The notes beneath the pieces are model-generated. The model ran no database searches. It saw only the letters and a list, made by a program, of their open reading frames with translations, and was not told the origin of the DNA. 64,000 nt of DNA from a virus. Lineage: Duplodnaviria > Caudoviricetes. A program made the translations under genes and the position numbers. Positions 177-21,871 of the stretch are shown here, piece after piece. Position 1 is the stretch's first letter, and the number at the start of each line of letters is the position of its first letter. The stretch lies in IMG/VR virus record IMGVR_UViG_3300028197_000002; one strand, given 5' to 3'.

Positions 177-959
177 TCATATGAAATAAATAGAATTTTT
201 AGTTTTTGTTTTCGGGTAGCATTTGTAAACGCTAGACAGACAGCGACCGGAGTCATTTTTTATATATACTGTTGATTTTATTCCAATAATTCCTGCCAAA
301 TGAGACATGCCGCTGTCGGCTCCAATGAATTCTTTGCATCTGTTCATTTTTTCTATCAAATAAGACAAGTCTCCTAAAAGATATTTTGATTCTTCTATTT
401 TGGTGTAAATTTTAATATAATATTCTTTTGATTCTTTTCCACCTATGTAAAAATAATTTTTGTATTTTAATATTTCTTTGATTTCTTTTTCTGAGTAATT
501 TTTTTTAACTCCTCTTTTGTCAAATTGAACTAAAGTTAATTCTTTTTTTCTATTTGTTTTTAGTTTTTGTTTTATTGGATTTGATTTTTTAATGTCAAAA
601 TTAAAATTTTCTATTAAGAATTTTGAAAATTGACTTATAAAAAAACAACCATTATACATTCCAATTTTACAATTACATTTATTTTTGAGCGAATAGTTGT
701 TTATTTCTTTTATTAGATCTACTGAGTTTATTGTAAATATATTTAATTTTTCGTTTATTGAAACCTTTTTAAATTCAAAGTGTTTGTTGAGTTTTTTGCA
801 TATCTCGCAAACTTTTTCGCCTTCTACTTTTAATTTAAAATTTATATTTTTTTGTTTTCCTAGATTTTCAAGGCAATACATGATAAAGATCACATCGCCA
901 ATTCCACATGTTTTTCCATTGAAGTTTTCTTCTTTTATACTAAAATATTTTGTAGGCAT
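177..959 (-). CDS. Glycosyltransferase family 9-like (heptosyltransferase-type) protein
   Basis: C-terminal FIGADSGMSHLAGIIG matches the GT9 DSGxxHLA motif; N-terminal GIGDVI. Confidence 0.65.
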   Translation of the reverse strand: MPTKYFSIKEENFNGKTCGIGDVIFIMYCLENLGKQKNINFKLKVEGEKVCEICKKLNKHFEFKKVSINEKLNIFTINSVDLIKEINNYSLKNKCNCKIGMYNGCFFISQFSKFLIENFNFDIKKSNPIKQKLKTNRKKELTLVQFDKRGVKKNYSEKEIKEILKYKNYFYIGGKESKEYYIKIYTKIEESKYLLGDLSYLIEKMNRCKEFIGADSGMSHLAGIIGIKSTVYIKNDSGRCLSSVYKCYPKTKTKNSIYFI

Positions 960-969
960 GTTGATATCT

Positions 970-1638
970 ATGATTACAAAAAAAACTCTTGTAGCACACC
1001 AACCGAGTTATTTGCCTTGGTTGGGTTATGTTGAAAAATTGAGAATTAGTGATGTCTTTGTGATAATGGATGATGTTAAATTTAGCAAGAATAGCATGTA
1101 TGCTAGAAATTACATAAAGATTAAAGATAAAAAAGTTCTTTTAACTGTCCCTACTTGTAATGAAGATAAAAATAAAAAGATAAAAGATGTGAAGATAGCA
1201 GGGGATTCTTGGAGGCAGAATCATTTAAAAAAAATAATTATGGCTTATTCTAAAAGTGATTTTTATGATTTATATTTTCCAAGAATTGAAAAAATATATT
1301 GTAAAAACTGGAAATGGATTTTCGATTTGAATTTAGAATTTTTATTTTTTATAAAAGATGTTTTTGAAATCAAATCTGATTTGAAAATTGCTAGTCATTT
1401 TGATTTTGAAGGAGATAAAAATTTAAGATTGGTAAATTATTGCAATCAATTTAATGCAAATGAGTATTTGTTTGGGGAAAATGGAAAAAACTATGTAGAT
1501 GAGAAGTTGTTTTCAGAGAATGGGGTGAGAGTAGGATTTCAGAAATTTAAATGTCCCAATGAAAGACTAAGTTTTTTAGATTATATTTTCAAATACAAAA
1601 TATATGATGGCTTTTTCGGAGTGATAGAATATGTTTAA
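970..1638 (+). CDS. WbqC-like protein (putative glycyl transferase for amino sugars)
   Basis: AHQPSYLPWLGYVEKL..SDVFVIMDDVKF..RNYI signature. Start moved from ORF-track 697 to ATG 970; ATG 958 is also possible. Confidence 0.85.
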   Translation: MITKKTLVAHQPSYLPWLGYVEKLRISDVFVIMDDVKFSKNSMYARNYIKIKDKKVLLTVPTCNEDKNKKIKDVKIAGDSWRQNHLKKIIMAYSKSDFYDLYFPRIEKIYCKNWKWIFDLNLEFLFFIKDVFEIKSDLKIASHFDFEGDKNLRLVNYCNQFNANEYLFGENGKNYVDEKLFSENGVRVGFQKFKCPNERLSFLDYIFKYKIYDGFFGVIEYV

Positions 1639-2221
1639 AAATGAAAAAGAGTATTTTGAAATTCACGAAAATAAAAAAGGAGCTTTGAAATTAGGATTTG
1701 GTTCCACATATAGTCAAAGTTATAGATATGGTGTTTTGACTAAAGACATAGATCTGAAAAACAAGAAGGCTATTCTTTTGGGATGTGGAGAGGGCGCAGG
1801 TGTTCCATTTTTACAATCTAAAGGATGTGAAGAAATTTATGGTTTTGACATATTGAAAAAAAATATAATTTCGGCTAAGAATAAATACCCTGATCTAGAG
1901 GAGAATTTTTTTGTTATCTCCAGAACAGAGGATGTGAGAAAAGTAGTTTCCACAACAGATTGGATTTTTGCTTCCGGAACTTGGAACGTAAAAACAAAAG
2001 AGAAATATTCTAAAATAGAAGGCCTTCTAGATTTAGTAGATATTGTTAGTGTTGGAATTGCCACTAATCTAACAACAAATGTTTCAGAGAGTGATGATTG
2101 TCATAATTTTTCTCAATTAAAAGTCTTGGAAATGTTTATGAATAAATTTAAAAAATGGAAATTAGATTATAGTTATTTTAAAAATGACTTTTCAATATTT
2201 GGAATTGATCCTATAAAATAA
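1631..2221 (+). CDS. Class I SAM-dependent methyltransferase
   Basis: ILLGCGEG motif I, YGFDI motif II, DWIFASGTWN; overlaps the wbqC-like stop. Confidence 0.75.
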   Translation: MFKNEKEYFEIHENKKGALKLGFGSTYSQSYRYGVLTKDIDLKNKKAILLGCGEGAGVPFLQSKGCEEIYGFDILKKNIISAKNKYPDLEENFFVISRTEDVRKVVSTTDWIFASGTWNVKTKEKYSKIEGLLDLVDIVSVGIATNLTTNVSESDDCHNFSQLKVLEMFMNKFKKWKLDYSYFKNDFSIFGIDPIK

Positions 2222-3956
2222 ATTTGTTTTTATATATTATCTTGTCGCCAATACATAGTATGTCCATACCTGAGTTTTCAAATATTGTTTTTGCCTGCGT
2301 AGTATTTCCAACTATTGGACCACCTCCTTCATTTAAAGAGGTGTTTAACAACATTGGGATTTTTGTTAATTTGTAAAATTCTTTGATCAATTCATAAAAG
2401 TCTTCATTGTCTTCTTTTTCTATTGTTTGAATTCTGCTTGTTCCATCTTCATGTGTTACTGCTGGAATTATTTTTTGTTTTTCTTTTTTTACTTTTGCTG
2501 CGAACATCATGTGTTTGCTTTTATGAATATCAAACCAATCTTTTGCAAATTCTTCTAAAACAGAAGGGGCATATGGCCTCCAATGTTCTCTGTGTTTTAC
2601 TTTTGAGTTTAATTTATCTTTTCCATCTTTGATTGATGGATTCATTAAAATAGATCTATTTCCTAAAGCTCTGGGACCTATCTCGCCATTCCCTTGATAC
2701 CACCCAATAATTTTTCCTTTTGCTAATTCTTTAGCAATTGTTTGTATTGTTTCTTTGCTTGGTCTTTCTACGGATTGATCACTTTGCATGTAAGGAAAAT
2801 TTTTAATTTCTGGAAATTTTATTTCATATTTTAGAAGTAAAAATGCCAAACAACCTAAGCTTAATCCTCCATCGTAACAATGAGGAACCACATGCAGATC
2901 GGGATATTCTTTTAAAAATTTTGCATTTGCAACTGTATTTTGAGCACATCCTCCAGAGTATACAATTTTAGATTTTTTTGGAATGAATTTTTTAAACATT
3001 AGTAAAACTATTTCTTCCCATATTTTGTGAAAAGTTGTTACTAAATTTAGAAAATTTTCATTTTTAAAGTTGCATGCATTAGAATGTTTGATTAGTTCGG
3101 GTCTTTTGTTTGGGTCAAGTATGTCGTCAGGCATACATAAAAAAACATTTAATGATTCAAACCAAAAATTTGTTATTTTAAATTTCAATATATTATTTTT
3201 TGATTTTTCTTTAAAATATCGAATGATATTTTCATCTATTTTTCCATATGCTTGCAAACCCATAATCTTCCCAGCAAAATCTTGAAGCTTCCCTTGCATG
3301 TTCATGCAAATTCCTATGTTTTCGAACAGCCCTCCCAGAGAATTCCAATTTATTTCTATGTCGTTGTTGTCATTCTTTCTTATCCATCTTGAATTAAATA
3401 AGATTTTTAAATTTTTCATATCAAAAGGATTTTTTAAAATTAACTTGTTATTAAAATCAGGTCCTCCTCCATCTATGGAAATTCCATAATCTGATTCTTT
3501 GAAGTTTTCATTCGATATCCATCCGCTTAGGATGTGGCAATAATCATGATGCACCCAACAAATTGGGACATCTGTCATTTTTGTTTTCGCCAGCAACGTG
3601 ACATAATTCTCTAAAATTTCTTTTCTTTTGCAGATTAAATGTTTGTTTTTTTTAATTACTGATTCTATTTCTTTTATATTTTTTATCCATTCTAATTCTA
3701 ATGATTTTATGTTTTTATAGTTCTGGCTAAACAAAGTAATTGATTTATCGTCTAAATCTTTTAAACTTCCAAGAGTTATTGCTACGACATCTGCTTTAAA
3801 TTTATTTTTGTTTATGAATTTTGAAATCGCAGTACAATGTTCATCGTGTTTCTTTTTTGAATGTCTTTCTTCTTTGATATAATGAAGTTCGGAAGTTTTT
3901 GAATCATAGGTAGTTACGTTAAAATCATGGCCCGAATGAACACATAGAAATTTCAT
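2211..3956 (-). CDS. Carbamoyltransferase (NodU/CmcH family)
   Basis: HDFN..EERHSKKKHD, HHDYCH, IDGGG, AGKIMGLQAYG, YSGGCAQN, WYQGNGEIGPRALGNRSIL, KHREHWRPYAPSV, LLNTSLN. Confidence 0.93.
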   Translation of the reverse strand: MKFLCVHSGHDFNVTTYDSKTSELHYIKEERHSKKKHDEHCTAISKFINKNKFKADVVAITLGSLKDLDDKSITLFSQNYKNIKSLELEWIKNIKEIESVIKKNKHLICKRKEILENYVTLLAKTKMTDVPICWVHHDYCHILSGWISNENFKESDYGISIDGGGPDFNNKLILKNPFDMKNLKILFNSRWIRKNDNNDIEINWNSLGGLFENIGICMNMQGKLQDFAGKIMGLQAYGKIDENIIRYFKEKSKNNILKFKITNFWFESLNVFLCMPDDILDPNKRPELIKHSNACNFKNENFLNLVTTFHKIWEEIVLLMFKKFIPKKSKIVYSGGCAQNTVANAKFLKEYPDLHVVPHCYDGGLSLGCLAFLLLKYEIKFPEIKNFPYMQSDQSVERPSKETIQTIAKELAKGKIIGWYQGNGEIGPRALGNRSILMNPSIKDGKDKLNSKVKHREHWRPYAPSVLEEFAKDWFDIHKSKHMMFAAKVKKEKQKIIPAVTHEDGTSRIQTIEKEDNEDFYELIKEFYKLTKIPMLLNTSLNEGGGPIVGNTTQAKTIFENSGMDILCIGDKIIYKNKFIL

Positions 3957-4050
3957 TTTTATCCTCTCTAATTTTTATGATTTACTATTATATAGTATGA
4001 TTTATTGTGTAATGCTGTTAAGAGAAAAATTTAAAGCAATTGAATAAAGT

Positions 4051-4686
4051 ATGAAATTTTTAAATTTTAAAAAAGTTTTGTGTTTGTCTCCTCATCCTGA
4101 TGATGTTGAAATAGGGATGATGGGAAGTATAATTAAATTTAAAAAAACTGATTTTGATTTGCTTTATCTTTCTAAAGGTGGAGCAAAAAAATACGATAAA
4201 ACAAATAGCAAAAATAGAATCGAAGAAGCTATTGGTATTTGGAGTTATTCTAAGCAGAAGAACGTTTCTTTTATTTCCTCTAAATTCAACTATATAGAAG
4301 ACGCAACAGAAGAAGATTGGATTAACTATTTAGATAAAGTCTTTTGCAAGAAAAAATACGATTGCTTGTTTGTTCCTTCTTTAGAAGATTCTCACTCAGA
4401 TCATCAGCTAGTAAATAAATTTGGCAAAGCTATGTTGAGAATATCCAAGACATCTCTTATAGAATATCAAACGCCTAGTTCTTTAAATGATTGGTCGTTT
4501 AATTTTTTTGTAGACATAAGAAATCAATATGAAGACAAAATTAATTATTTAAGAATGATAGAGTCGCAGAAAGAGAAAGAATATCTAAAGCAAAAAGCTT
4601 TAGATTGTTTTCATTCAAACTTCCAGTGCTCTAAAAAAGGTTTGCTAGAAGTTGAAAAATTTAAAATTATTGATCTTTATTGTTAA
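4051..4686 (+). CDS. PIG-L/LmbE family deacetylase
   Basis: LSPHPDDVEIG metal motif and DSHSDH. Confidence 0.88.
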   Translation: MKFLNFKKVLCLSPHPDDVEIGMMGSIIKFKKTDFDLLYLSKGGAKKYDKTNSKNRIEEAIGIWSYSKQKNVSFISSKFNYIEDATEEDWINYLDKVFCKKKYDCLFVPSLEDSHSDHQLVNKFGKAMLRISKTSLIEYQTPSSLNDWSFNFFVDIRNQYEDKINYLRMIESQKEKEYLKQKALDCFHSNFQCSKKGLLEVEKFKIIDLYC

Positions 4687-5467
4687 TGCGAATATTTTTG
4701 TACTTTTCCCAAGGAATGCGTTTTGTTGAATTATGTTCACAAAAATGACAGCCGTATTTCCCATGTTTATAATCTAACCAACAATTAGAAATTTCTATGT
4801 CATTTATAAAAATCGGATCTTTATTTAACAAACATTTTGCGACCAAACCTTGTTCGTCAAAATATTCCCATTTTTTCAAATTAGCTTCTTTTAAAAATTT
4901 TATTATTTCATGTTCGAATTCATAATTTGGTGGCAAACCAAAAATCCCACTATTTAAAATAAATTTTTTTGATTTTTTATTATGTGTAAAGCTTCCTTCG
5001 ACTGCTTGTGCAATTTCGCGATGTTTAATACTTGCCGGATTATAAATAGAAAAAAAACTGGAAAATGCACCATAAGGCAGACGTCTATATTTGTTGATCC
5101 GCATGTCATTGCATCCATAGCATAGAGGTTTGTTGCTTTGTAAAAACTTATCTATTTGAGGAATTCTTTTGTGAATTACAATGTCATTATCTAAAAATAT
5201 TTCATGAGAATTTATTCTTAGTCGAGGAGGAAAAAGCTTCCAAGCGTTAATAGAAAAAGGCTTGACTTGAATATTGCAACAATCGTGTGTTTGCTGGAAA
5301 TAAGAAACATTTTCTAAAGTTTCTAAATCTTCTAATTCTATTTCGTTGTAACAAACCGTATAGTCAAACTCTGGATAGATTTTTTTAAAAGATATGATAG
5401 ATTCTTTAAGTATTTCATGTCCTGTTTTGCTTACTTTTCCTATTGTCCATCTAGCTAAAGGCTTCAT
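4667..5467 (-). CDS. Putative GT-A fold glycosyltransferase (paralog family RWxxG/WKxxPPRL/HEIxLDND)
   Basis: LDND DxD motif, NSGIFGL, EQGL; shares motifs with 17118 and 18777. Confidence 0.6.
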   Translation of the reverse strand: MKPLARWTIGKVSKTGHEILKESIISFKKIYPEFDYTVCYNEIELEDLETLENVSYFQQTHDCCNIQVKPFSINAWKLFPPRLRINSHEIFLDNDIVIHKRIPQIDKFLQSNKPLCYGCNDMRINKYRRLPYGAFSSFFSIYNPASIKHREIAQAVEGSFTHNKKSKKFILNSGIFGLPPNYEFEHEIIKFLKEANLKKWEYFDEQGLVAKCLLNKDPIFINDIEISNCWLDYKHGKYGCHFCEHNSTKRIPWEKYKNIRINNKDQ

Positions 5468-5505
5468 ATTGATTTAAGTTTAGTGGTTTCTTTATATATA
5501 GTTTT

Positions 5506-6300
5506 ATGATCAATATAATAATTTCTATTTTTGATGAAGCATTCATGTTTCATGCAATGAGAATGTATAAATCTTATAGATTTTTTGATAAAGAAACAAA
5601 AATGTATGCTGGATCAATAAATCTTTCTCAAAAAAGCATTGAAAAATTAGAATCCATAGGAGTTGAAGTTTTATTTAACAAAAAAAAAGAAGTTCCAAAA
5701 CACCTTCAGCTATGCGATTTAATTATTGAAGATTATATAGAAGATGTTGAGTGGGATAGTTTAATGTGGATAGATGCAGATACTATTGTTCTTAGGCCTT
5801 TGAATCATCTTTTTTCTCAAGATTTTGATTTCATTTGTCATGGAGGCAATATAAATTTAGGTTATTTTAAGCAAGGAGCTTTTAATTGCTATCCTTACAA
5901 ATCTACTTGGATAAAAAGAGAAATAAAAAATGATGAATTAGTTGAAACATGCAAATGGGGAGATTTTTTTGCAATGGGTCTTTGGGTTGCTAAAAATAAA
6001 GAGTTGATAAAAGATTTTAATTTATTGTATAAAAAAAATAAAAGATCTTATTTTGAAGGAGACATTTGCAGCGAACTTTTGAATGCCAAATATAAATGCA
6101 AACAGCTAGACGGTTTTGAATGGTCAGTTGGAACATTGCAAAATGATTTGTTGTATTATGAGAACGATAAAGTTATTTTAAAAGTAGGCGACAAGAAGCA
6201 TTTTCCGTACCAGTTTGGTTATTCTAGAATAGGAGAGGAAAGGCCTGAATGCGAAGCTATAGAAAAGTTTTATAAGAAACGAATATTGAAATTAGGATGA
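5506..6300 (+). CDS. Putative GT8-like nucleotide-diphospho-sugar transferase
   Basis: LMWIDADTIV DxD motif. Confidence 0.6.
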   Translation: MINIIISIFDEAFMFHAMRMYKSYRFFDKETKMYAGSINLSQKSIEKLESIGVEVLFNKKKEVPKHLQLCDLIIEDYIEDVEWDSLMWIDADTIVLRPLNHLFSQDFDFICHGGNINLGYFKQGAFNCYPYKSTWIKREIKNDELVETCKWGDFFAMGLWVAKNKELIKDFNLLYKKNKRSYFEGDICSELLNAKYKCKQLDGFEWSVGTLQNDLLYYENDKVILKVGDKKHFPYQFGYSRIGEERPECEAIEKFYKKRILKLG

Positions 6301-7043
6301 AAATTAAATATTTTTTCATTATAAAACTTTAGTTGTTCGTCACAAATTATTGTTTTAAAAAAATCTTCATTTGTGGTAAGTTGTCGGTATCTTTTCGTAA
6401 CTTCCATTTGTTGAGATCTGTTTTGATAATCCATTTGATCAAAACTACTTCCACCACCGTTAGTTGCTAAGAATTCCAATCCCGCATCGGAATGTTCTAC
6501 TTCGAATTTCGCAGATATTTCTTCTCTGTATTCTTTTTTTAAAAACCAATCATTAAAATTTATTTTTATTACTTCTTTATTGAAAAATGAAGGTTCTAAG
6601 TATTCTTTTGCATATGAAATCCAAAGTTCCTTGTCATTATAGTTTGTCCAAATTTCATTCCACCAATTCATTTCCATAGTTGGATTTAATTTTTTTTGAT
6701 ATCTAGATGCGTATGTGTTGTACGCATCTCTTAATAGCAAAATGTTATTTATTTTTGGTTTTAATTTTAGTACGTGACTAAAACTACTATTGAATTTTTC
6801 ATTTAACAGAACGGGCCTGTCTTCAAAACTTAAAATGCTAATTTTAAAATCAGAATGCCGACATCCTTTTTTTGTTATTTCGTGTGGCCCATCAACATAT
6901 ATATGTTCACCTATAACAAAGCAGTTGTTATAATGAATGTAAGATTCAAAGTGATTTAACAACCAGTTAATTACAGCATGGTTTCCACTTCTTTTTAATC
7001 CAAAAAAAAAGTAATCTCTATGTTCATTTGGTATTTTCATCAT
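6270..7043 (-). CDS. Sulfotransferase-like protein
   Basis: FFGLKRSGNHAVINW 5'-PSB-like loop; LLLRDAYNTYASR 3'-PB-like motif. Confidence 0.65.
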   Translation of the reverse strand: MMKIPNEHRDYFFFGLKRSGNHAVINWLLNHFESYIHYNNCFVIGEHIYVDGPHEITKKGCRHSDFKISILSFEDRPVLLNEKFNSSFSHVLKLKPKINNILLLRDAYNTYASRYQKKLNPTMEMNWWNEIWTNYNDKELWISYAKEYLEPSFFNKEVIKINFNDWFLKKEYREEISAKFEVEHSDAGLEFLATNGGGSSFDQMDYQNRSQQMEVTKRYRQLTTNEDFFKTIICDEQLKFYNEKIFNFHPNFNIRFL

Positions 7044-7067
7044 AGCATTTTAAAATAGTTTATTGTA

Positions 7068-7868
7068 ATGAGTAATTATAAAACAATAGGAATAATATCT
7101 CTTTCTAGGAGTGGTAGTACATTTTTAAATAATCACTTTGTTAATAAAAATAATTATTCTATTGAAGAGTTTTTTAATCATTGTGATTTGGGTGATGGAC
7201 GCATAGCCGATCCCGCTATGATAAAATTATTTAGTAGAATTGAAAAACAAGTAAAAGGATTCGATGGCTCAAATGTGGATTTCAATAATAGAATTGATCA
7301 ATTTTTCTTTATAAAAAAAACAATTAAAAAAAACATAGTACTTAAGATAATTCCCAGCCATGCTTCTTGGCTGGATGAAAATAAAATTATTCCAATTATT
7401 GATAATTTAGATTTTTTAATTTTTAATTATAGAAAAAACTTATTGGATTCATTCATTAGTTTAGAAAAGGCAAAAATAACGGGCCGATGGTCTTCAATTA
7501 ATCATGAGTATATAGATTTAAAAATAAAATGGGATGAAAAAAGATGGGGTGAGTATTTGTCAGCCAGTATTGATTCACTAAATTTCATTTTAAATATTTA
7601 TAATAAATTTGAAAGAAAAAAACACATGGTTTGTTATGAAGATTTTTGTAAAAATAAATCAAGATTTGATTATTTGTCTGATATTTTTGAAGATCAAATT
7701 GTTCTTCGTGAAAATTCTATTTGTCTTAAAAAGCAAAGAAAAGAAAATATTTTAGAAGATAACTTTATTAATCCGTTAGAGTTTTTAGATTACTCTATGC
7801 ATAATGAATCGTTAACAACATTTGCAAAAGACATTTCAATTTATATTAAATCAAAACTAAAATCATGA
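7068..7868 (+). CDS. Sulfotransferase (Stf0-like)
   Basis: SLSRSGSTFL, YRKNLLDSFISLEKAKITGRW, VCYEDF. Confidence 0.75.
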   Translation: MSNYKTIGIISLSRSGSTFLNNHFVNKNNYSIEEFFNHCDLGDGRIADPAMIKLFSRIEKQVKGFDGSNVDFNNRIDQFFFIKKTIKKNIVLKIIPSHASWLDENKIIPIIDNLDFLIFNYRKNLLDSFISLEKAKITGRWSSINHEYIDLKIKWDEKRWGEYLSASIDSLNFILNIYNKFERKKHMVCYEDFCKNKSRFDYLSDIFEDQIVLRENSICLKKQRKENILEDNFINPLEFLDYSMHNESLTTFAKDISIYIKSKLKS

Positions 7869-8539: not shown

Positions 8540-8566
8540 AATTACTTTTTTAGGTATAATCATTAA

Positions 8567-10204: not shown

Positions 10205-10205
10205 T

Positions 10206-13041: not shown

Positions 13042-13151
13042 AGTAATTTTTACCGAAGACAGGCGGATCTTCAATAGAAAAGTTTTTTAACATTTATGGT
13101 CACGATAATATGAACAAAAACAATTTTATTTTCGTGAGATATTGGCATTTT

Positions 13152-14428: not shown

Positions 14429-14466
14429 ATTTATATAAATTAGTTGTATTACTATATTTATATGAC

Positions 14467-15279
14467 ATGTTGAAGATTAAAAAAATTTTGTGTTGTTTTG
14501 CTTTTGGTGGTTTGAATGATGTGATGTGTCAAACTTTGAAAGCGTTTGATTATTGTGTAAAGCATAAAAGAAAGCTTCTTTTAGACACAAAGCAATCTAG
14601 ACTTGAGAGGGATATAGCAGACTATTTTAATTTAGAAAGCGATATATTTTTAAAAAACGTTCATCCTCCAAAAATTACTTTTCAATATAGAAGTTCTGGA
14701 ATTTGCAGCGAGGCAGGGGATTATTATAAAGTTGATTACAATAAAAAGTATGGCGATTTTTTGTTGATTAATGCAAATAATAATGAAACTTGCGATGTTG
14801 CAAATATATTTTTCAAAACGTTTAGTATGAAAAGTTTTCTTTTAGATTTGATACGTGAAAGGCTATCCTGTCTCCCAGAAGATTACATATCTGTTCACGT
14901 AAGAAATACAGATTACTCTTCTGATGTTTATGATTTTTTAAAAAATAATAAACATCATTTTGTCAGAAAGAATATTTTTTTGGCATCTGATAATACAGAA
15001 ACATTATCTTTTTTAAAAAAAGAATTTGAAATTATTGGATCTAATGTTTTTTCTTTTTCTAACATACCAAAATTTGATTCTAGTTTTAAAGGAGGAATAC
15101 ACAAGTATAAAGTTGAAGATAAAGACAGTCTCAATATAGATGCTATTTCTGATTTGGTTTTATTGTCTTTAGGAAACAGATACTATTTTGCCCCAAGTAG
15201 ATCTTGGTATTCTTTGAGTGCTAAAAAAATGCATGAAGACAAAGATTTTAAAATGAAATTTTTAGATCAACTAATTTAA
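14467..15279 (+). CDS. O-fucosyltransferase/NodZ-like GT-B protein
   Basis: GGLND, SVHVRNTDY, IFLASDN, AISDLVLLS. Confidence 0.65.
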   Translation: MLKIKKILCCFAFGGLNDVMCQTLKAFDYCVKHKRKLLLDTKQSRLERDIADYFNLESDIFLKNVHPPKITFQYRSSGICSEAGDYYKVDYNKKYGDFLLINANNNETCDVANIFFKTFSMKSFLLDLIRERLSCLPEDYISVHVRNTDYSSDVYDFLKNNKHHFVRKNIFLASDNTETLSFLKKEFEIIGSNVFSFSNIPKFDSSFKGGIHKYKVEDKDSLNIDAISDLVLLSLGNRYYFAPSRSWYSLSAKKMHEDKDFKMKFLDQLI

Positions 15280-16164
15280 TAAAATTTTATATTGTTTAAT
15301 TTTTCTTAAAGCATATCTTCCTGTTTGATTTATATTTATTTGATTTTCATATAAACCTTGTCTATTGTCCATTAAATGTAAAAAAATAGGTTCGTTTGAT
15401 GTAGAATTTTCGTATTCGAATGTGGTTTTTCCATTTTCTTTTGTTATTTTATTTATAAGTTTTTTGTTATGATGTGGCAAAAAACAATCATAACAATTAT
15501 ATTTTTGTGGATTCAATATGTTTAAAGGAATATTTAATTTTTTCATTGAATTGGCTAAGGCAACTTGCCCCGTGTAATACTTGAATTTTTTTTCTAGAGT
15601 TGGATAGCTATGAAATAGCTCGGTGCCAATGTCTATTAAATATTTGGATGGAACGACTACGAATCCAAAATTTATATAATATTTATTTAGTGTTTTTTCT
15701 GATATTCCTATTTTATTTAGTTCAGTTCTATTTACATAAGAATTATCTAATGCGATGCATCCGTGCATTTTATTTTTGTCTAAACTAAATACCTCATCTA
15801 GACTATTGCAGCATAACATATCTACATCAATCATAATGCAAATTTCTGATTTTGGTTTTATGAACCATCTACATGGCAAGCCCAATTCCCAGAAGTAAGG
15901 ACAATAAATAAATTCAACATTTTCTCTAACTATTCTTGAGTTTTTGAATTTTGTTATTTTTTCTATTTCTTCGTATTTAATTTTTTTCATGCCGAATTTA
16001 TTCGTAATCTCAGCATTATTTTCTTTTTTTTCTCCTTGAAAAATACAAGAAAAGTAAGTTTTATTTGAGCAATTTATTTTTATTGATTGAACTAGGTTTT
16101 CTAATCCTTTGAACATCCAATTGTTATTGCTCAACATCATTATAAAGTGAACTGAGTCGGGCAT
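15271..16164 (-). CDS. Putative GT8-like glycosyltransferase
   Basis: MIDVDM DxD, YINFGFVVVP, GQVAL. Confidence 0.6.
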   Translation of the reverse strand: MPDSVHFIMMLSNNNWMFKGLENLVQSIKINCSNKTYFSCIFQGEKKENNAEITNKFGMKKIKYEEIEKITKFKNSRIVRENVEFIYCPYFWELGLPCRWFIKPKSEICIMIDVDMLCCNSLDEVFSLDKNKMHGCIALDNSYVNRTELNKIGISEKTLNKYYINFGFVVVPSKYLIDIGTELFHSYPTLEKKFKYYTGQVALANSMKKLNIPLNILNPQKYNCYDCFLPHHNKKLINKITKENGKTTFEYENSTSNEPIFLHLMDNRQGLYENQININQTGRYALRKIKQYKILLN

Positions 16165-16227
16165 TTTTTTATATTTCTTTTACTATTATACTTTTGTGTC
16201 TTATATGAGTAAAAGGAATAATTTTTA

Positions 16228-17118
16228 ATGACTTACCAAGAAGAAATTAATAAAATTTTGAGTTCTGATATAGATCCTCAAGAAAAGTTAAACGCAATAG
16301 AAAATCTTAAAAAAGAAGTTCCAGAGACGGAAGACTCGGAGTTTGAAAAATTAAAAAAAATATTAAATTCAGATGAATGGCCCGAAGCTGTTTTAGAATT
16401 TCAAATAGCAGACGACACTTCTGAAGAAGATAAGATCGACAGAGCAGAAGGAATAGTTGACATACTAATTGAAGAATCATTAGAAAACAAAAAATTTCTT
16501 GATTTTGGTTGCGGAGAAGGACATGCTGCCAAATATGCTTCTGAAGATTCCGCTATTTCAGTAGGTTATGATATTGAAAAACAAGGATCTTTAGAATGGG
16601 AAAATGATGAAAAATTTCTTTTAACTACTGATTTTGAAAAAGTAAAAGCAAAAGGTCCTTTTGATGCAATTCTTATTTATGATGTTTTAGATCATGCTGA
16701 AAATCCTGTCGAAGTTTTAAATCAAGCTAGTTCCGTTTTAAAAAATAATGGAACCATATATTTAAGATGTCATCCTTGGTCGAGTAGGCATGGAGGTCAT
16801 GCGTATAGAAAAATAAATAAGGCATTTGTTCATTTGGTTTTTTCTAAAGAAGAGTTGAAAAACTTAGGAATAGATAATGGTCATAACAATAAAGTCTTAT
16901 TTCCTATTGCGACTTACAATGGTATTCTCGCAGAAGTACCGGGGTTATCTGCAAAAGATCCTGATATCGAAGAACAGGAAGTCGAACCATTTTTTAAGAA
17001 CAATGAATTAGTTAGAAAAAGAATACTACAAGTATTTGGTAGAAAAAATTGGGAAGAAGCTTGCCCTTCATTTCAAATGGGTCAATGTTTTTTAGATTAT
17101 GTCATTAAGGCCAAGTAA
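16228..17118 (+). CDS. Class I SAM-dependent methyltransferase with N-terminal helical extension
   Basis: FLDFGCGEG, VGYDI, FDAILIYDVLDH, LKNNG. Confidence 0.8.
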   Translation: MTYQEEINKILSSDIDPQEKLNAIENLKKEVPETEDSEFEKLKKILNSDEWPEAVLEFQIADDTSEEDKIDRAEGIVDILIEESLENKKFLDFGCGEGHAAKYASEDSAISVGYDIEKQGSLEWENDEKFLLTTDFEKVKAKGPFDAILIYDVLDHAENPVEVLNQASSVLKNNGTIYLRCHPWSSRHGGHAYRKINKAFVHLVFSKEELKNLGIDNGHNNKVLFPIATYNGILAEVPGLSAKDPDIEEQEVEPFFKNNELVRKRILQVFGRKNWEEACPSFQMGQCFLDYVIKAK

Positions 17119-18074
17119 TGTCTAAGCCTTTGGTTAGATGGACCATAGGTAAGTCCAAGCAAAAAAGCTCATACAAAATATTGGACGTGTCTATTAGACA
17201 GATGATTAGTTTGTATTCTGATAGGTTTGACTATTGTGTTCTTTATAATCACATAGAAGAAAAAGACATTCTTTTTTTGAAAGAAAAATACCCAAATGTA
17301 GTTTTTACAAAACAAAATTGGAAACTTTTTCCTGTCAATTTAAGTCGTCCTTCTGATGTGGGCGTGGGCGAGCACAATCAAATAATAAATGGTAGTTTCT
17401 GGAAAATTTGTCCGCCTCGACTGAACCCAGTTGGGCATGAAATCTTTCTTGACAATGATTTGGTTTTTTTAAAAAGACCAAAAGCAATAGAAGATTTTCT
17501 TTCTAGTAAAGATAAAAATTTAATTATAAGAGATTCAAATGTTTACTTAGGAAAGTATCAAGGTTTATTTGAGAATGAAAAACAAGGTTATAACTCGGGA
17601 GTAATAGGACTTCGTCCAAATTATAATTTTGAAAATCATATAGTTGAAAATTCAGGTTTTTTAGATGATGTTAATGACTATGGTGATGAACAAGGTTTGT
17701 TAATGTATGTTTTATATAAAACAAATCCAATAATAGGTTCTTCCGAGAGTTTTGTTGGAATTCACCCGGACAAATTGTTTTTAAATGGCATTTCTGATTC
17801 TAGGTATGAGCATTTAAAAAAAGAAGATTTAGATAAAAAAAAATTTTTGCAATTTTATTTAGATGAAAAGACAGGAAGTTGGAAGAATTTTAATGACTTT
17901 CAAAGTTTTGAAAGTGAAATGAATATTACCGCTCCATTTGGGAAACTCATATCGAAAGAAGAAACTCTTAGAATTTTGAGAGAAACTTTTTCAAATGCTG
18001 ACGTTGTTCATTTTTTAAAGTCGAATAGACTTTCTCATTTTCCTTGGAATTATTTTCGATTTAAATTTATATAA
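17118..18074 (+). CDS. Putative glycosyltransferase (PPRL paralog family)
   Basis: RWTIG, FWKICPPRL, HEIFLDND, YNSGVIGL, DEQGL. Confidence 0.6.
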   Translation: MSKPLVRWTIGKSKQKSSYKILDVSIRQMISLYSDRFDYCVLYNHIEEKDILFLKEKYPNVVFTKQNWKLFPVNLSRPSDVGVGEHNQIINGSFWKICPPRLNPVGHEIFLDNDLVFLKRPKAIEDFLSSKDKNLIIRDSNVYLGKYQGLFENEKQGYNSGVIGLRPNYNFENHIVENSGFLDDVNDYGDEQGLLMYVLYKTNPIIGSSESFVGIHPDKLFLNGISDSRYEHLKKEDLDKKKFLQFYLDEKTGSWKNFNDFQSFESEMNITAPFGKLISKEETLRILRETFSNADVVHFLKSNRLSHFPWNYFRFKFI

Positions 18075-18768
18075 AATTTTTATTTAATTCAAAGTCTTTT
18101 TTAAAAGCTTTTCGTATAAGTTTTTTATTTTCCGGTGTCAAATAGTCTTTGTAGTTATGGCCTCTTTTTCTATGGCTGTGATTTTCACAAACTATGTTTT
18201 TTAGGTTTATTTTATATTTTTTGTTTATTCTTTCAATTCCTTTTTCTATATGCTTTATGTTAATTAACTCGTTTATTTCTTTTGTTACAAATTGACCCGC
18301 TGAATGGCTGTAACAACTTAAACAATCGGCAGGTTTAATTCCTTTAATTCTTAATTTTAAAAAATTTTTAAAATTTTCACATTTTAATTTGCACTTATAC
18401 TTTTCATAAGTTTTTCCTGTTGATGCCGCAAGGTCTGGATTCAAGCGTGCCAATTTTGAAAAGGCTGTGTGTTGTACTTCTTTGCCATGTTTGTGGTGCA
18501 AATAACAACTAACTGCTCTTTCATATGGATTTCTATAAAATTGAATTTTTAAATATTCTTTAAATTCATCTCGATCAACAGGGATGTTAATTCGGATTTG
18601 CGAGTTAGTTATTGGTAACCGATGCGTTACTAAATGTGCTTTGAACCTTTTAGTTTTGTCATATGATTCAATGTTAGAATAATCTATAAAAATATTTTTA
18701 ACAGAAGTGCTTGCGCATTTTTGAGTTGTTATGAATATAATTTTTTTTTCGTCATTAATCAATATCAT
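18067..18768 (-). CDS. Sulfotransferase family 2 protein
   Basis: FITTQKCASTS and YRNPYERAVSCY. Confidence 0.8.
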   Translation of the reverse strand: MILINDEKKIIFITTQKCASTSVKNIFIDYSNIESYDKTKRFKAHLVTHRLPITNSQIRINIPVDRDEFKEYLKIQFYRNPYERAVSCYLHHKHGKEVQHTAFSKLARLNPDLAASTGKTYEKYKCKLKCENFKNFLKLRIKGIKPADCLSCYSHSAGQFVTKEINELINIKHIEKGIERINKKYKINLKNIVCENHSHRKRGHNYKDYLTPENKKLIRKAFKKDFELNKNFI

Positions 18769-18776
18769 TTTGAATC

Positions 18777-19751
18777 TTGCTGTTATTAACTATTATAATT
18801 TATCTATTATTGTTAAAAACAAAAAGGGTTTCGGTGGTAAACATAAAGTCTGACAAGCCAATTTTAAGATGGGTGCTAGGCCATTGTAACAAGCACAGTC
18901 TTTCTGTTTTAAATGCATCTATTAAGAGTGCTATTAACTTTTATGAATCAGAATTTAATTATTTTGTTCTTTATAACGAAGGAGTTGAAGAAGAAAAGTT
19001 AGGCCTGCTGAAGAATAAATACAAAAACGTAAATTTTTTAAAACAAGATTGGGCTAATCTGCCTTTTAATTTAAATAAGCCTTCGCATTTGGCCGCTGGT
19101 AGAGTCGATCAGGCTCCAAGCAACCAAGTGAATAATGGAAGTTTTTGGAAACTTTGTCCTCCAAGATTATCTTTAGGTGTTCATGAAATTCTTTTAGATA
19201 ATGACGTAGTATTTTTAAAAAGACCAGCTTTGATAGATGAATTTCTTAGTAGAAAGGATAAGAATTTAATAACAGAAGACACAGTATCTTATAATGGAAG
19301 TTTTGAAAAATATTTAGGTCGAGCATATAACGCTGGCATTGTAGGACTGAGGCCAGAATATGATTTCGAAAAAGATCTGTTAGAGAACTATGAACTTATT
19401 GATCAAACAAATGAATCTTATGCTGAAGAACAAGGTTTGACAATTTACACTTTATACAAAACTGATCCTTTAATTGGATCATGCAAAGATTTTGTTGGTC
19501 TTCATTGTGATAAAATCTTCTCATCTAATTTAAAAAAACATGAGAGCGAAATGAGAGAAGATTATTATTTGTTTGGGTCAAGGTTAGAGCCTTGGGATAC
19601 AAGAGTTTTATTTGAAGTTTTGTCTAATAAAAATTCTTGCAATTTGTTGAACCATGTTTTTTCAACCGCAGAGTCTATACATTTTTTAGGAGTAAATAGA
19701 AGAGAGAAGCATTTCGGATGGAATTTTTTCAAAAGTCTTAAAAAATGTTAG
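18777..19751 (+). CDS. Putative glycosyltransferase (PPRL paralog family)
   Basis: RWVLG, FWKLCPPRL, HEILLDND, YNAGIVGL, EEQGL; true start may be GTG near 18834. Confidence 0.6.
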   Translation: MLLLTIIIYLLLLKTKRVSVVNIKSDKPILRWVLGHCNKHSLSVLNASIKSAINFYESEFNYFVLYNEGVEEEKLGLLKNKYKNVNFLKQDWANLPFNLNKPSHLAAGRVDQAPSNQVNNGSFWKLCPPRLSLGVHEILLDNDVVFLKRPALIDEFLSRKDKNLITEDTVSYNGSFEKYLGRAYNAGIVGLRPEYDFEKDLLENYELIDQTNESYAEEQGLTIYTLYKTDPLIGSCKDFVGLHCDKIFSSNLKKHESEMREDYYLFGSRLEPWDTRVLFEVLSNKNSCNLLNHVFSTAESIHFLGVNRREKHFGWNFFKSLKKC

Positions 19752-20401
19752 ATTTAAGTAAAAACATATCTTTAGTGGCTATAGGTTCAACGAGAATCAA
19801 AGAAACTCATTTGGCAATTAGAAAATGTTGCTCTCTAGCTAAATTTTCTTCTGTTCTGTATTTTACAGATAAGAATAACATAGGGCATGACGACTGTGTT
19901 AAGTATATTGAAATTCCTAAAATAAAAAGCAAATTAGAATACCAGTCTTTTGTTGTTAAAGACTTTCCTAATTACGTTCTTCCTCATTTAAATAAGTCTC
20001 ATATTTTAAATATTAGTTGGGACGGTTTCATTGTTAATCCTAATGCTTGGAAAAATTATTTTTTGGAATTTGATTACATAGGAGCGCCTTGGGTAAAAGA
20101 AGCGAGTCCTATTTTAGCTGGACATTGTGGGAATGGTGGGTTTTGCTTGAAAAGCAGAAAGTTTTTAGAAGCTCAAGATTCTATAGAAGATCTTAGACAG
20201 TACACACCAGCAATAGAAAGGTATGAAGATGTTACTCTTTCTTTTCATTTCAGGAAGAAATTTGAAAGTTTAGGTTGTAGTTACGCTCCTGTTTTTGTTG
20301 GAAATGAATTTTCAACAGAGCATGGAAATTATGATAAACACAAATCTTTCGGTTTTCATAACTTAAGAATTAACAAGAAATTTGTCAATAAACTGCTTTA
20401 G
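19745..20401 (+). CDS. DUF5672-like putative glycosyltransferase
   Basis: WDGF, FDYIGAPW, GNGGFCLKS, EDV, FGFH. Confidence 0.8.
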   Translation: MLDLSKNISLVAIGSTRIKETHLAIRKCCSLAKFSSVLYFTDKNNIGHDDCVKYIEIPKIKSKLEYQSFVVKDFPNYVLPHLNKSHILNISWDGFIVNPNAWKNYFLEFDYIGAPWVKEASPILAGHCGNGGFCLKSRKFLEAQDSIEDLRQYTPAIERYEDVTLSFHFRKKFESLGCSYAPVFVGNEFSTEHGNYDKHKSFGFHNLRINKKFVNKLL

Positions 20402-20492
20402 CATATGGTAAAATTTAATTTTATTTAATTATATTTTAAGCATAAATACCTAGTGAACGATTTTGTTCTCACTTATCCATGGAGGAGTAAAT

Positions 20493-20675
20493 ATGAAATG
20501 TCGTAAACCTAATGGCGTATTGATCACATTGCCACAAAATTGCGCGTCCCTTAGCAAATGTGGTGGTTGGAAGTTTTTTTTAGCTAACTGCCCAAGGACG
20601 AACATGATGTGCTCATCACTTTCAGGCGCATGGGTTCCAGCTATTACAGTTTGTAACCAACAATTATACAGCTAA
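20493..20675 (+). CDS. 60-aa cysteine-rich peptide (6 Cys)
   Basis: GGAGGAG RBS upstream of ATG 20493 and own terminator downstream; no recognised family. Confidence 0.65.
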   Translation: MKCRKPNGVLITLPQNCASLSKCGGWKFFLANCPRTNMMCSSLSGAWVPAITVCNQQLYS

Positions 20676-20706
20676 TATTATTATTTTTTTTATAATATTT
20701 ATACTT

Positions 20707-20737
20707 AAGCCTTTGTAGCAATACAGAGGCTTTTTTT
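20707..20737 (+). terminator. Rho-independent terminator
   Basis: AAGCCTTTGTA-GCAA-TACAGAGGCTT stem (one G-U) followed by T run. Confidence 0.85.
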
Positions 20738-20979
20738 ATGTCAAATTACTTATTTAAACTTAGATGCTTGTTACAATACTCCTAATCGCGTTTGCCATTC
20801 CTAGTTATAGAGCATTATTCGCCTGTTAGAGAGCGTGTAAATTTAATTGAACTAAATCATGTCTATCATCCTAACGGCTCTACAAAGCTCCCTCAGTTCA
20901 TTTATAAGCGATTTAAAAAGACATGGAAGAGTATCTGTTGGAAATAGAGAACTTCTTTCTAAGATTATGAGGATTTCAA

Positions 20980-21804
20980 ATGAGAAAAATTAACGTCAGG
21001 GTTTCTTCTGGGCTGGGTGATAGGCTTTTGACATTGCTTTTTTATTATGTTAATTTTGGATCTGAAAATGAAATAAATATTTTTTGGGAAAAGAATAATT
21101 GTTTGAATTGTGATTATGATAAGCTTTTTAAAAATAAAGTAAAACTTTCATTTGGAAATGATAATCTATTTTCCTTACCTTCCGATGTTCCTGTTATAAG
21201 CAGAAAAAATTTAGTGATAAATTATTTAAAAAGTTTAAAAAAGCAGGATGTTCTTATAAAAGGAGAAGTGTTTGATAAAACTTCTGATTTTAAGAAGCTT
21301 GATTATAAAAAATACTTTAAAGAGATTCTTAGTCCTTCAGAGGACATTCAGTCTGCTGTCAATGAGTATATTAAAAATAATTTTAATTCAAAAATAATTG
21401 GGGTTCATTTCAGGGCGGCAGACAAACTTTGTCCCAAAACTTTATCTTTTTTTTCGCCTAAAAAATCTTTGTTCCAAATTTTAAAAGAATATGATTTGGC
21501 GATTAAGACTTTTTTGACCGATGATTGCAAAATTCTTCTAGCCACAGATGATTCAGGTCCTAGATCTCCGTGTTCATCTGATATTCAAAATTTAAAATTA
21601 AAAGATTATTTTAAAGAAAAATATGGAAATAAAGTAATCGAGTTTCCTTGTCGATCTCTTGCAAGAAACACTGAAGAGGGCATAATTGATGCTTTCCAAA
21701 CTTTGATTTTGTTGTCGAAATGTGATTGTTTTGTTGGTTCTTGTCGATCTAGTTTTTCAAAATTAATCTGCGTCAATTTTGACGATAGTTTCAAATTGGT
21801 TTAG
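20980..21804 (+). CDS. O-fucosyltransferase/NodZ-like GT-B protein
   Basis: SGLGDRL, GVHFRAAD, LLATDD, LILLSKCDCFVGS..SSFS. Confidence 0.7.
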   Translation: MRKINVRVSSGLGDRLLTLLFYYVNFGSENEINIFWEKNNCLNCDYDKLFKNKVKLSFGNDNLFSLPSDVPVISRKNLVINYLKSLKKQDVLIKGEVFDKTSDFKKLDYKKYFKEILSPSEDIQSAVNEYIKNNFNSKIIGVHFRAADKLCPKTLSFFSPKKSLFQILKEYDLAIKTFLTDDCKILLATDDSGPRSPCSSDIQNLKLKDYFKEKYGNKVIEFPCRSLARNTEEGIIDAFQTLILLSKCDCFVGSCRSSFSKLICVNFDDSFKLV

Positions 21805-21871
21805 TTTACTTGCTGTCTTTTTGTTCTATAATAAATTCGTTAAAATTAATTTCTAAATACTGGATGATTAA

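Follow-up and report, generated by a model that had tools for sequence, protein, structure and literature searches.

Sequence analysis of 64,000 nucleotides of DNA from a tailed virus (IMG/VR record IMGVR_UViG_3300028197_000002; Duplodnaviria, Caudoviricetes), hereafter the window, reveals a large island of genes for building and decorating glycans. Positions 177-21804 are occupied by 26 back-to-back open reading frames (ORFs) at a coding density of 95%, and nearly all of them encode glycan-building or tailoring enzymes, much as a preliminary description made from the letters alone had proposed (about 25 contiguous genes). The segment is real, but the island is larger on both sides: with a TPR-GT9 gene at 23111-24565 and 9.8 kb of sequence preceding the window, it comprises approximately 31.5 kb and approximately 38 proteins. 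It is a long-resident phage gene set that encodes only soluble enzymes, and it is a lipopolysaccharide (LPS)-like cluster of the type found in marine T4-like phages, unusually large and rich in sulfotransferases. Its enzymology and its evolution by cassettes are, in our judgement, very probably as described below; what the glycan is attached to is a more tentative matter.

Extent and residence of the island

The part of the island that precedes the window is found on an independently assembled 259-kb JGI contig (L002). Because positions 1-10959 of this contig, reversed, are 100% identical to window positions 1-10959, the remaining L002 sequence supplies the 9.8 kb before the window start. Encoded there are a second carbamoyltransferase (only its C domain above cut-off), a GalE-like SDR, a GT2 glycosyltransferase, a weak Fringe/GT31-like protein, a fifth sulfotransferase (Table 1), four unassigned ORFs and an SDR with a full-length best match to GDP-L-fucose synthase (NCBIfam, 8e-53; 180 bits against an equivalog cut-off of 500). 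The preliminary description had reported no gene for the synthesis of nucleoside diphosphate (NDP)-sugars or of 3´-phosphoadenosine 5´-phosphosulfate (PAPS). This holds for the window, where no P-loop of the adenosine 5´-phosphosulfate (APS)-kinase type is found, but not for the island, because the GDP-fucose-synthase-like and GalE-like SDRs lie in the preceding 9.8 kb. The left border is formed by a gene for a PIF1/UvrD-like helicase beyond that stretch; on the right, genes for an RNA-ligase-like and an acidic protein lie between position 21804 and the TPR-GT9 gene.

Is the island an artefact, with DNA of a cellular O-antigen locus joined to phage DNA during assembly? The window as a whole is AT-rich (25-35% G+C in 2-kb segments), and the lower G+C of the island (28.5% versus 32.1% for the rest of the window) and its bacterial-type enzyme families would agree with such an origin. 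However, codon usage is shared with the rest of the window (correlation of relative synonymous codon usage, r=0.97), the same junctions are present in independent assemblies, and the island has no export genes. Three related lineages were compared, namely a 109-kb contig (L003), a 126-kb contig (L006) and a more distant contig (its NodZ-like protein being 37% identical), and these relatives carry the island beside phage-type genes such as those for CsrA and HNH endonuclease. Misassembly can scarcely be credited. Seven assemblies, the longest of 372 kb, carry the protein of the first ORF (177-959), for the most part beside the same neighbours. Strand switches number 15 among the 26 genes of 177-21804, compared with 10 among the other 46 genes of the window.

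The soluble nature of the enzymes is a consistent feature. None of the approximately 38 proteins has a hydrophobic 19-mer resembling a transmembrane segment, except in an N-terminal extension from a doubtful TTG start; the protein concerned, at 18777-19751, probably begins near 18855, because the hydrophobic N-terminus exists only with that TTG. Pfam scans of the island found no Wzx/Wzy, chain-length regulator, ABC transporter, polyprenyl-phosphate or initiating transferase, or ligase families. Eleven ORFs of 177-21804 score above the Pfam curated cut-offs, and approximately ten island ORFs are without a match in Pfam, NCBIfam or PHROGs. The GT9, GT8 and NodZ/FUT8 assignments of the preliminary description and one of its sulfotransferases correspond to sub-threshold Pfam matches (E 0.0002-0.008).

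Near-identical words of positions 12001-22000 occur in 24 sequencing runs (19 studies), most of them of marine or seawater metagenomes; the two runs that match best may be the source sample. No RNA run is among the runs listed as matching this segment; one metatranscriptome matches a small share (0.07) of positions 10206-12100. A megablast search of the island against deposited phages gave no match. The preliminary description had also speculated that a sulfated coat could act as a lure for, or mimic of, Planctomycetes; the 28-32% G+C of the window calls for caution here.

Enzymes of the island and their rearrangement among relatives

Four intact sulfotransferase-like genes had been proposed in 177-21804, and all four were recovered, starting at 6270, 7068, 13877 (weak) and 18067. 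The whole island has five, of four families, and the number rises to seven with the dispersed Sulfotransfer_2 (PF03567) genes at 35702 and 60664, likewise anticipated, which are paralogous to 18067-18768 (BLASTP). The protein encoded at 6270-7043 has a family of 86 homologues, and Pfam recognizes a domain in none of them. The motif test for PAPS binding consisted of a 5´-phosphosulfate loop, K/R-S-G-x-x, and a 3´-phosphate motif, R...S, 8 residues apart. In 76 aligned members, the motifs GLKRSGNH and RDPxNxFAS were found, with R18/G20/H22 and R105...S113 invariant, and by sequence these correspond in form and spacing to the 5´-phosphosulfate (5´-PSB) and 3´-phosphate (3´-PB) binding motifs. 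The spacing of R105...S113 equals that of R130/S138 in mouse estrogen sulfotransferase. An AlphaFold2 (AF2) model of the protein has a pLDDT of 91.9; its top 50 Foldseek matches in the PDB are all sulfotransferases (probability 0.9-1.0), with modest TM values of 0.35-0.48, and its ESM-Atlas neighbours are sulfotransferase clusters of phages and bacteria (TM 0.6-0.73). Judged from the predicted structure, the alpha/beta fold is present and the protein is a sulfotransferase. Searched by sequence and by profile, the PDB yielded no useful match to the protein or its family. A homologue of this family is encoded 2.5 kb from a split NodZ gene on a bacterial contig (L008:6493-10888), a second case of sulfo- and fucosyl-type enzymes in proximity.

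As for the other sulfotransferases, the protein at 7068-7868 resembles Sulfotransfer_3, Stf0 and NodH clusters, mostly viral, in the Atlas (structure TM 0.66-0.77) and carries an SRSGST motif recognized by eye. No sulfotransferase remnant of the kind previously suspected was found. The short protein at 13877-14428 is a conserved form and not a remnant, because a 182-aa homologue with 68% identity is present in L006, and a tblastn search of the gap at 20402-20979 with all island proteins finds no similarity. A tblastn search of 50,697 deposited phage records gave no match for three of the four sulfotransferases of 177-21804, which represent three different families; 18067-18768 has no match in deposited phages. 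Single sulfotransferases of phages appear in the literature as auxiliary genes of unclear function (PMC10580990, PMC8290583).

Two NodZ/O-FucT-like enzymes had been proposed, one of which is borne out at the level of fold, whereas the other (20980-21804) has weak sequence matches only, including one to FUT8 chains by phmmer (E=0.013) and an HFRAAD motif recognized by eye. The family profile of 14467-15279 matches NodZ (2hhc) at 5.7e-4. In the AF2 model (pLDDT 89.9), the top 50 Foldseek matches in the PDB are FUT8, NodZ, AtFUT1 and POFUT1 (E down to 3e-6, TMq 0.52-0.61), and among viruses the closest fold is that of an annotated fucosyltransferase from Synechococcus phage S-SCSM1, with many giant-virus proteins next in rank. 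Structure prediction, which the preliminary description had named as a check, thus returned the expected fold both here and in 6270-7043. HVRNTDY is invariant in the family, and its residues H144, R146 and D149 form the pattern H-x-R-x-x-D, which by sequence is the donor-binding motif of the GT23/GT37/GT65 fucosyltransferase superfamily. GDP-fucose is the putative donor of the FUT8/NodZ-like enzymes, considering the GDP-L-fucose-synthase-like gene before the window start; no gmd gene was seen in the window part of the island or in the preceding 9.8 kb.

In all, eight proteins of the 31.5-kb island are supported as glycosyltransferase-like, and the number may be as high as 14, with at least seven fold types represented. 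The GT9, GT8 and DUF5672 calls of the preliminary description fared differently: DUF5672 is firm, and the other two remain weak (E ~0.004, below cut-off). The GT9-like protein at 177-959 has a 36%-identical homologue at the same place in L003. The GT8-like protein at 5506-6300 is 85% identical in L003 and aligns with a GT8 reference by hhalign (76% probability, E=2.3e-5), the only link that hhalign detected among the island families. Three GT-A-like paralogues (4667-5467, 17118-18074 and 18777-19751) share an invariant DND in alignment and have GT8 and nucleotide-diphospho-sugar transferase clusters as structural neighbours in the Atlas; a PDB search with their profile gave nothing useful, and tblastn found no match to the family in the 50,697 phage records. 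The DUF4422/GT111-like domain of 7865-8539, of about 200 aa, has 171 homologues, and fusions of it to GT8, GT4, GT2 or methyltransferase domains are frequent among them. Atlas features of the GT-A-like lead at 13152-13880 are mainly unnamed viral clusters with distant GT34, DUF1647 and TOD1 rows, and PDB searches by sequence and profile were unproductive. The C-terminal 285 aa of the TPR-GT9 protein have 1,174 homologues, many with PF01075 (Glyco_transf_9); one TPR-GT9 homologue also has DUF5672. BLASTP between the two GT9-like proteins (177-959 and 23111-24565) gave no significant match.

The island as a whole encodes a broad set of decorating enzymes: five sulfotransferases, four methyltransferases, two carbamoyltransferases, an ATP-grasp ligase and a dioxygenase. 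The carbamoyltransferase, deacetylase and aminotransferase of the preliminary description all score above the Pfam cut-offs. In the carbamoyltransferase (2211-3956) this applies to both Carbam_trans_N and Carbam_trans_C, as in NodU/NolO/CmcH, and identity to cyanomyophage and pelagimyophage carbamoyltransferases is 33-37%. No related loci were found in viral contigs for WbqC and the carbamoyltransferase, and the literature search turned up no functional study of WbqC. The half-size DegT aminotransferase is a conserved form and not a broken gene, because a 196-aa form is kept in the distant relative. Neither a NeuB/PseI-type synthase nor a CMP-sugar synthetase, as in the Pse/Leg pathway, is found in the window part of the island or in the 9.8 kb before it.

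A module of four genes at 9653-13041 encodes an FkbM methyltransferase (Pfam, 3e-11), a PhyH dioxygenase (Pfam, 5e-16), an LRR protein and an ATP-grasp ligase. The genes are joined, in order, by a 1-nt spacer, an ATGA overlap and an ATGA overlap, and their order is kept at 70-86% identity in L006 (L006:3645-7027). The PhyH, LRR and ATP-grasp genes are adjacent with overlapping coordinates in three lineages, with the FkbM gene alongside. From its gene arrangement, the module has the look of a single enzyme of several subunits, with the LRR protein for recognition.

Because the relatives keep blocks of the island at 36-86% identity in varied arrangement, its cassettes have been reordered, inverted, inserted and replaced in the manner of bacterial O-antigen loci. 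L003 has a block in common with the island (234-aa protein, carbamoyltransferase, GT9-like protein, WbqC and methyltransferase; 36-74% identity) and an inverted block (PIG-L, GT-A paralogue, GT8-like protein and a sulfotransferase of the 6270-7043 type; 53-85%). Its extra genes encode Asn-synthase-like, CMP-sugar synthetase, Sulfotransfer_4, MptE/Maf-like, sulfatase-family, GT32 and DUF707 proteins. L006 shares the flavodoxin-like, FkbM, PhyH, LRR and ATP-grasp genes at 69-86%, has the NodZ-like gene, the short sulfotransferase gene and the 13152 homologue differently arranged, keeps the pair of GT-A paralogue and DUF5672, and has extra genes for Sulfotransfer_1, a second PhyH, a GT2/GT7C protein and a radical SAM protein. 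In the distant contig, the short DegT gene (196 aa) is followed directly by PhyH, LRR and ATP-grasp, with FkbM on the opposite strand just after.

Some of the genes gained by relatives are suggestive in their own right. A sulfatase-family gene (PF00884; L003:11549-13018) is inserted between the GT8-like and PIG-L genes, and this phage may both add and remove sulfate, or the gene may encode an enzyme of the phosphoethanolamine-transferase type. Genes for an Asn-synthase-like amidotransferase, a CMP-sugar synthetase (CTP_transf_3) and an MptE/Maf-like protein at L003:4349-9927 suggest a branch of the nonulosonic-acid type that is absent from the window island. In L006, the island is flanked by the radical SAM gene and a gene for an HNH endonuclease (L006:14359-18703), which might promote cassette exchange.

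The only sizeable gap in the island (Table 1) is not explained by a structured RNA, which was ruled out by fold z-scores of -0.9 and -1.1; the Rfam scan gave two tRNAs as its only matches. The gap holds an ORF of 60 aa with six cysteines (20493-20675, plus strand), placed between a GGAGGA ribosome-binding site and a terminator-like hairpin. The ORF may encode a small peptide, or it may be non-coding.

Table 1. Features of the island, its dispersed paralogues and two further genes of the window, in order of position (window coordinates, except for the last row; evidence values are Pfam E-values unless another source is named)
Feature	Position	Strand	Evidence
GT9-like (heptosyltransferase-family), weak	177-959	-	Glyco_transf_9, E=0.0045, below cut-off; GIGD and DSG..HLAG by eye
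WbqC-like protein, LPS-locus family	964-1638	+	PF08889, E=5e-53; 60% identical in L003
Putative SAM methyltransferase, weak	1631-2221	+	Methyltransf_11, 1.6e-3, below cut-off; 74% identical in L003
NodU/NolO-type carbamoyltransferase	2211-3956	-	Carbam_trans_C, 2.6e-63 (213 bits); Carbam_trans_N, 1.6e-14 (54.6 bits)
PIG-L GlcNAc-type de-N-acetylase	4051-4686	+	PF02585, 7e-13; 53% identical in L003
GT-A-like transferase, paralogue 1 of 3	4667-5467	-	BLASTP to 17118-18074, 2.5e-25
GT8-like transferase, weak	5506-6300	+	GT8, E=0.004, below cut-off
PAPS-type sulfotransferase, family without Pfam model	6270-7043	-	Motifs, AF2 model, Foldseek, ESM-Atlas
Stf0/Sulfotransfer_3-like sulfotransferase	7068-7868	+	Atlas feature score 0.97; no Pfam match
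DUF4422/GT111 (WbbM N-domain)-like protein	7865-8539	+	Profile matches WbbM 6u4b, E=1.3e-3
Half-size DegT/PseC/LegC-like PLP aminotransferase	8567-9202	+	PF01041, 2.6e-22; PseC, LegC ~1.5e-14; SFSATK lysine motif by eye
Flavodoxin-like protein, weak	9232-9660	-	Flavodoxin_1, 6.5e-5, below cut-off; 69% identical in L006
Module of FkbM methyltransferase, PhyH dioxygenase, LRR protein and ATP-grasp ligase	9653-13041	+	Pfam, all above cut-off
GT-A-like, lead only	13152-13880	-	No Pfam, NCBIfam or PHROG match; 80% identical in L006
Short sulfotransferase-like protein, 183 aa	13877-14428	-	Sulfotransfer_3, 1.8e-4, 22.3 bits against cut-off 27; FPRSGQH by eye
GT-B transferase, FUT8/NodZ/POFUT1 fold	14467-15279	+	Family profile, AF2 model, Foldseek
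Protein with DVD motif	15271-16164	-	No match in any library or PDB profile search; 46% identical in L006
Class-I SAM methyltransferase	16228-17118	+	Methyltransf_23, 7e-13; 47%-identical paralogue at L002:16025-16960
GT-A-like transferase, paralogue 2	17118-18074	+	Paralogy; GT8/Nucleotid_trans Atlas neighbours
Sulfotransfer_2 sulfotransferase	18067-18768	-	PF03567, 2.2e-12, 48.1 bits against cut-off 22
GT-A-like transferase, paralogue 3	18777-19751	+	41% identical to 17118-18074
DUF5672 protein	19745-20401	+	PF18922, 4e-16
Non-coding gap (578 nt)	20402-20979		Only sizeable gap in island
FUT8/NodZ-like transferase, weak	20980-21804	+	FUT8_N_cat, 0.0058; NodZ, 0.0077; below cut-off
TPR repeat and GT9-like fusion, right-hand outlier	23111-24565	+	TPR families by Pfam
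Dispersed Sulfotransfer_2 paralogue	35702-36433	+	PF03567, 1.1e-11; ATAAATA upstream
RgpF and GT4 fusion, outside island	42739-44466	-	Pfam
DUF3431, outside island	45652-46536	-	Pfam
Dispersed Sulfotransfer_2 paralogue	60664-61464	+	PF03567, 9e-5, above cut-off; TATAAATA 6 nt upstream
Fifth island sulfotransferase, before window start	L002:18743-19483		Sulfotransfer_1, 23.2 bits against cut-off 22

The acceptor of the glycan

A plausible course of events in the infected cell can be outlined from the enzymes. Donors would be reshaped by the GalE-like epimerase, the GDP-fucose-synthase-like reductase, the half-size PseC/LegC-like aminotransferase, the PIG-L deacetylase and WbqC, through 4-epimerisation, 3,5-epimerisation/4-reduction of the GDP-6-deoxyhexose type, transamination and de-N-acetylation. 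The glycosyltransferase-like proteins would join the sugars, and the tailoring enzymes would attach sulfate, methyl and carbamoyl groups, and probably amino-acyl or hydroxyl groups as well. This chemistry would take place in the cytoplasm, with PAPS, S-adenosylmethionine, carbamoyl phosphate and primary nucleotide sugars supplied by the host or by other parts of the phage genome. The acceptor may be a phage protein, most likely at the virion surface, and the product a sulfated, methylated, carbamoylated glycan coat with deoxy- and amino-sugars, as in giant viruses and some mycobacteriophages.

We lean towards a phage protein as acceptor because no membrane component is encoded, the TPR-GT9 protein resembles FlmG, an LRR subunit is translationally coupled to the decorating enzymes and giant-virus proteins are among the fold neighbours. 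FlmG is a soluble flagellin O-glycosyltransferase in which a TPR substrate-binding domain is combined with a GT-B domain (PMC7591256), and by analogy the TPR-GT9 fusion follows the same domain logic. Taken as a whole, i.e. enzymology, cassettes and glycosylation of the virion together, this is a tentative reading that could well prove wrong. Several points weigh against it. Glycosylated virions are not known from phages of this group. No link of the island to structural genes was seen, its flanks being the PIF1/UvrD-like helicase and RNA-ligase-like genes, and the flanks of the relatives' islands have no PHROG structural match. GT8, GT9, GT2, WbqC, FkbM and DegT are typical families of LPS loci, and similar clusters have been read in print as a means of changing the host surface (PMC1079782, PMC7029224). 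The promoter-like signals described below point in the same direction.

The published reading of such clusters is a serious alternative, if a slightly more doubtful one: the enzymes may modify lipid-linked O-antigen, core or capsule intermediates of the host on the cytoplasmic face, to be exported by the host flippase, ABC transporter or ligase, and the changed cell surface would exclude competing phages or keep progeny off debris. It is the standing hypothesis for P-SSM2, with 24 "LPS" genes in two clusters (PMC1079782), and for the glycosyltransferases of pelagimyophages, which have many GT8-type genes in a hypervariable region (PMC7029224). The island shares its enzyme families with LPS loci and is located away from structural genes, as remodelling of the envelope would allow. 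Methyl-type caps also fit ABC-transporter-dependent O-antigen pathways.

The sequences upstream of the genes add to this side of the argument. The preliminary description had suggested late expression from TAAATA-like elements. This is not sustained: TAAATA occurs within 40 nt upstream of only one of the 26 genes of 177-21804, compared with 3.6% of random 40-mers, and TATAAATA is found nine times in the window against an expectation of 9.75. TAAATA is present upstream of both dispersed sulfotransferase genes (35702 and 60664). TATAAT, by comparison, precedes five of the 26 genes (background, 2.4%). A T4 late promoter was thus rejected for the island, with TAAATA unenriched and TATAAT-type boxes enriched, and the signals, if anything, resemble -10 boxes of the sigma-70 type. 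In T4 terms, these might imply early or middle expression, before virion assembly; TATAAT-type boxes and no late motif before the island genes would suit an effect on the host envelope. Generic sigma-70 promoter and terminator scans gave results at or near chance. An exact 12-mer, TATAATAGT[AT]AA, was also noticed in four copies (3981-3992, 9622-9633, 16179-16190 and 18786-18797), all on the minus strand and within the island, with a minus-strand gene beginning 15-61 nt after each copy. With one mismatch allowed there are nine matches against 3.0 expected, and the 12-mer is a candidate -10 promoter element for genes oriented against the main direction of the genome.

On the other side, there are zero membrane components among the approximately 38 proteins, whereas the known serotype converters of phages (Gtr, Oac and Wzy-type) are membrane proteins. 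Up to 14 transferases would make a new repeat unit that host polymerases or exporters might refuse, and the TPR and LRR modules would be left without explanation.

The FkbM/PhyH/LRR/ATP-grasp module raises another possibility, namely that the island in whole or in part, chiefly the short DegT, FkbM, PhyH, LRR and ATP-grasp genes, modifies the side chain of a protein or peptide or makes a small sulfated or carbamoylated metabolite. Proteins or peptides are common substrates of ATP-grasp ligases and of PhyH-type dioxygenases. The LRR subunit has been conserved, with its gene translationally coupled, the island of L006 has radical SAM genes next to it, and a cysteine-rich ORF of 60 aa with a strong ribosome-binding site lies inside the island. 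However, the module is placed among nucleotide-sugar enzymes and transferases in every relative seen, and the 60-aa ORF is absent from the protein collection and has no relatives in viral contigs. We consider this explanation improbable.

Transferases of phages can also act on DNA, and the island might add and tailor sugars on hydroxymethylated phage bases as a means of evading restriction. T-even phages glucosylate hydroxymethylcytosine, and glycans of several sugars can be assembled on DNA by virus-encoded transferases (Pyle et al., 2024, cited in PMC12619734). Such hypermodification is very improbable here, as Pfam scans of the window reveal no base-hydroxymethylase or DNA-transferase family, and the number of enzymes and the presence of sulfo-, carbamoyl- and fucosyl-type enzymes far exceed any known DNA glycan.

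Comparison with known systems places the island most closely with the LPS-like clusters of marine T4-like phages (P-SSM2, S-SCSM1, S-SCSM2R and pelagimyophage), which likewise have sugar epimerases, transferases and a NolO-like carbamoyltransferase, and which vary in content between relatives (PMC1079782, PMC7029224, PMC12801897). It differs from them in its density, with up to 14 transferase-like genes within 31.5 kb, in its five sulfotransferases, drawn from four families, and in a conserved LRR-containing module, and, unlike the host-recognition cluster of pelagimyophages, which is linked to tail fibres, it is flanked by helicase and RNA-ligase-like genes. The glycosylation clusters of giant viruses (Megavirinae fibril, chlorovirus capsid) similarly combine their own cytoplasmic nucleotide-sugar enzymes with many soluble transferases and differ in content by clade, and the Atlas or fold neighbours of two island proteins include many Nucleocytoviricota proteins. 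The present virus is, in contrast, a tailed virus of a bacterial host, and its virion glycan is a putative one. To our knowledge, sulfation is not a described feature of giant-virus glycans. In mycobacteriophages, according to the articles that cite this work, soluble phage-encoded glycosyltransferases modify the phage's own structural proteins in the cytoplasm (Freeman et al., 2023, cited in PMC12619734, PMC12801897); as described there, one to few transferases are encoded beside capsid or tail genes, compared with approximately 38 genes here, no structural gene seen nearby, and sugar synthesis and tailoring in addition.

Bacterial O-antigen and capsule loci share the enzyme families, the lower G+C than their surroundings and the mosaic cassettes, but the island lacks their Wzx/Wzy/Wzz, ABC transporter, initiating phosphoglycosyltransferase and ligase, or any membrane protein. 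The tailoring of Nod factors (NodZ, NodH/NoeE, NodU/NolO, NodS/NoeI, NodB) is reminiscent in its fucosylation, sulfation, carbamoylation, methylation and de-N-acetylation. The resemblance is one of chemistry alone: the island has no NodC-type chitin oligosaccharide synthase and no NodA acyltransferase, and its deacetylase is of the PIG-L family.

Sugar clusters of marine T4-like phages have been known since 2005, and the island is an extreme, sulfation-rich case that recurs in marine metagenomes. Its five sulfotransferases (one of a family without a Pfam model), the coupled four-gene module with its LRR subunit and the TPR-GT9 enzyme offer experimental handles. If the product is on virions, self-glycosylation would extend from giant viruses and mycobacteriophages to marine jumbo phages and sulfation would join the surface chemistry of phages, which would matter for adsorption, grazing, aggregation and what becomes of viral particles in seawater. 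If the product is on the host, the island would be the first worked example of the superinfection-exclusion idea. One intriguing, if rather unlikely, scenario in its full form is that a widespread lineage of marine jumbo phages coats its virions by means of more than 30 enzymes of its own and host PAPS in a sulfated, methylated, carbamoylated glycan of the fucose type, which would be the first sulfated glycan to come from a bacteriophage, with cassettes setting the "serotype" of each strain, and with the LRR/ATP-grasp/dioxygenase complex and TPR-GT9 picking the protein acceptors.

Other genes in the window

The remaining contents of the window fit a large phage and include genes for a sigma-70-like factor, ClpX-like and AAA ATPases, phosphoribosyl pyrophosphate (PRPP) synthetase, ATP-dependent ligases, a PHROG "ferredoxin" auxiliary protein and two tRNAs. 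A PP-loop protein of the TilS N-domain type (Pfam ATP_bind_3, 1.4e-20) is encoded at 24752-25506, ending 6 nt before a tRNA gene with a CAT anticodon that ARAGORN assigns to Met. ATA accounts for 40% of the Ile codons in the window (30 per 1000 codons), and the pair could be a phage lysidine synthetase and its tRNA-Ile2 substrate, serving to decode AUA.

Three genes are of the ATP-dependent ligase type: the RNA-ligase-like gene at 21872-22507 and those at 53950-55245 and 58399-59493, of which one encodes a DNA ligase with an OB domain and one a protein with a WGR domain. Together with a protein at 44447-45214 that has the HAD "Swiss Army Knife RNA repair" domain, they look like a toolkit for the repair of RNA and DNA.

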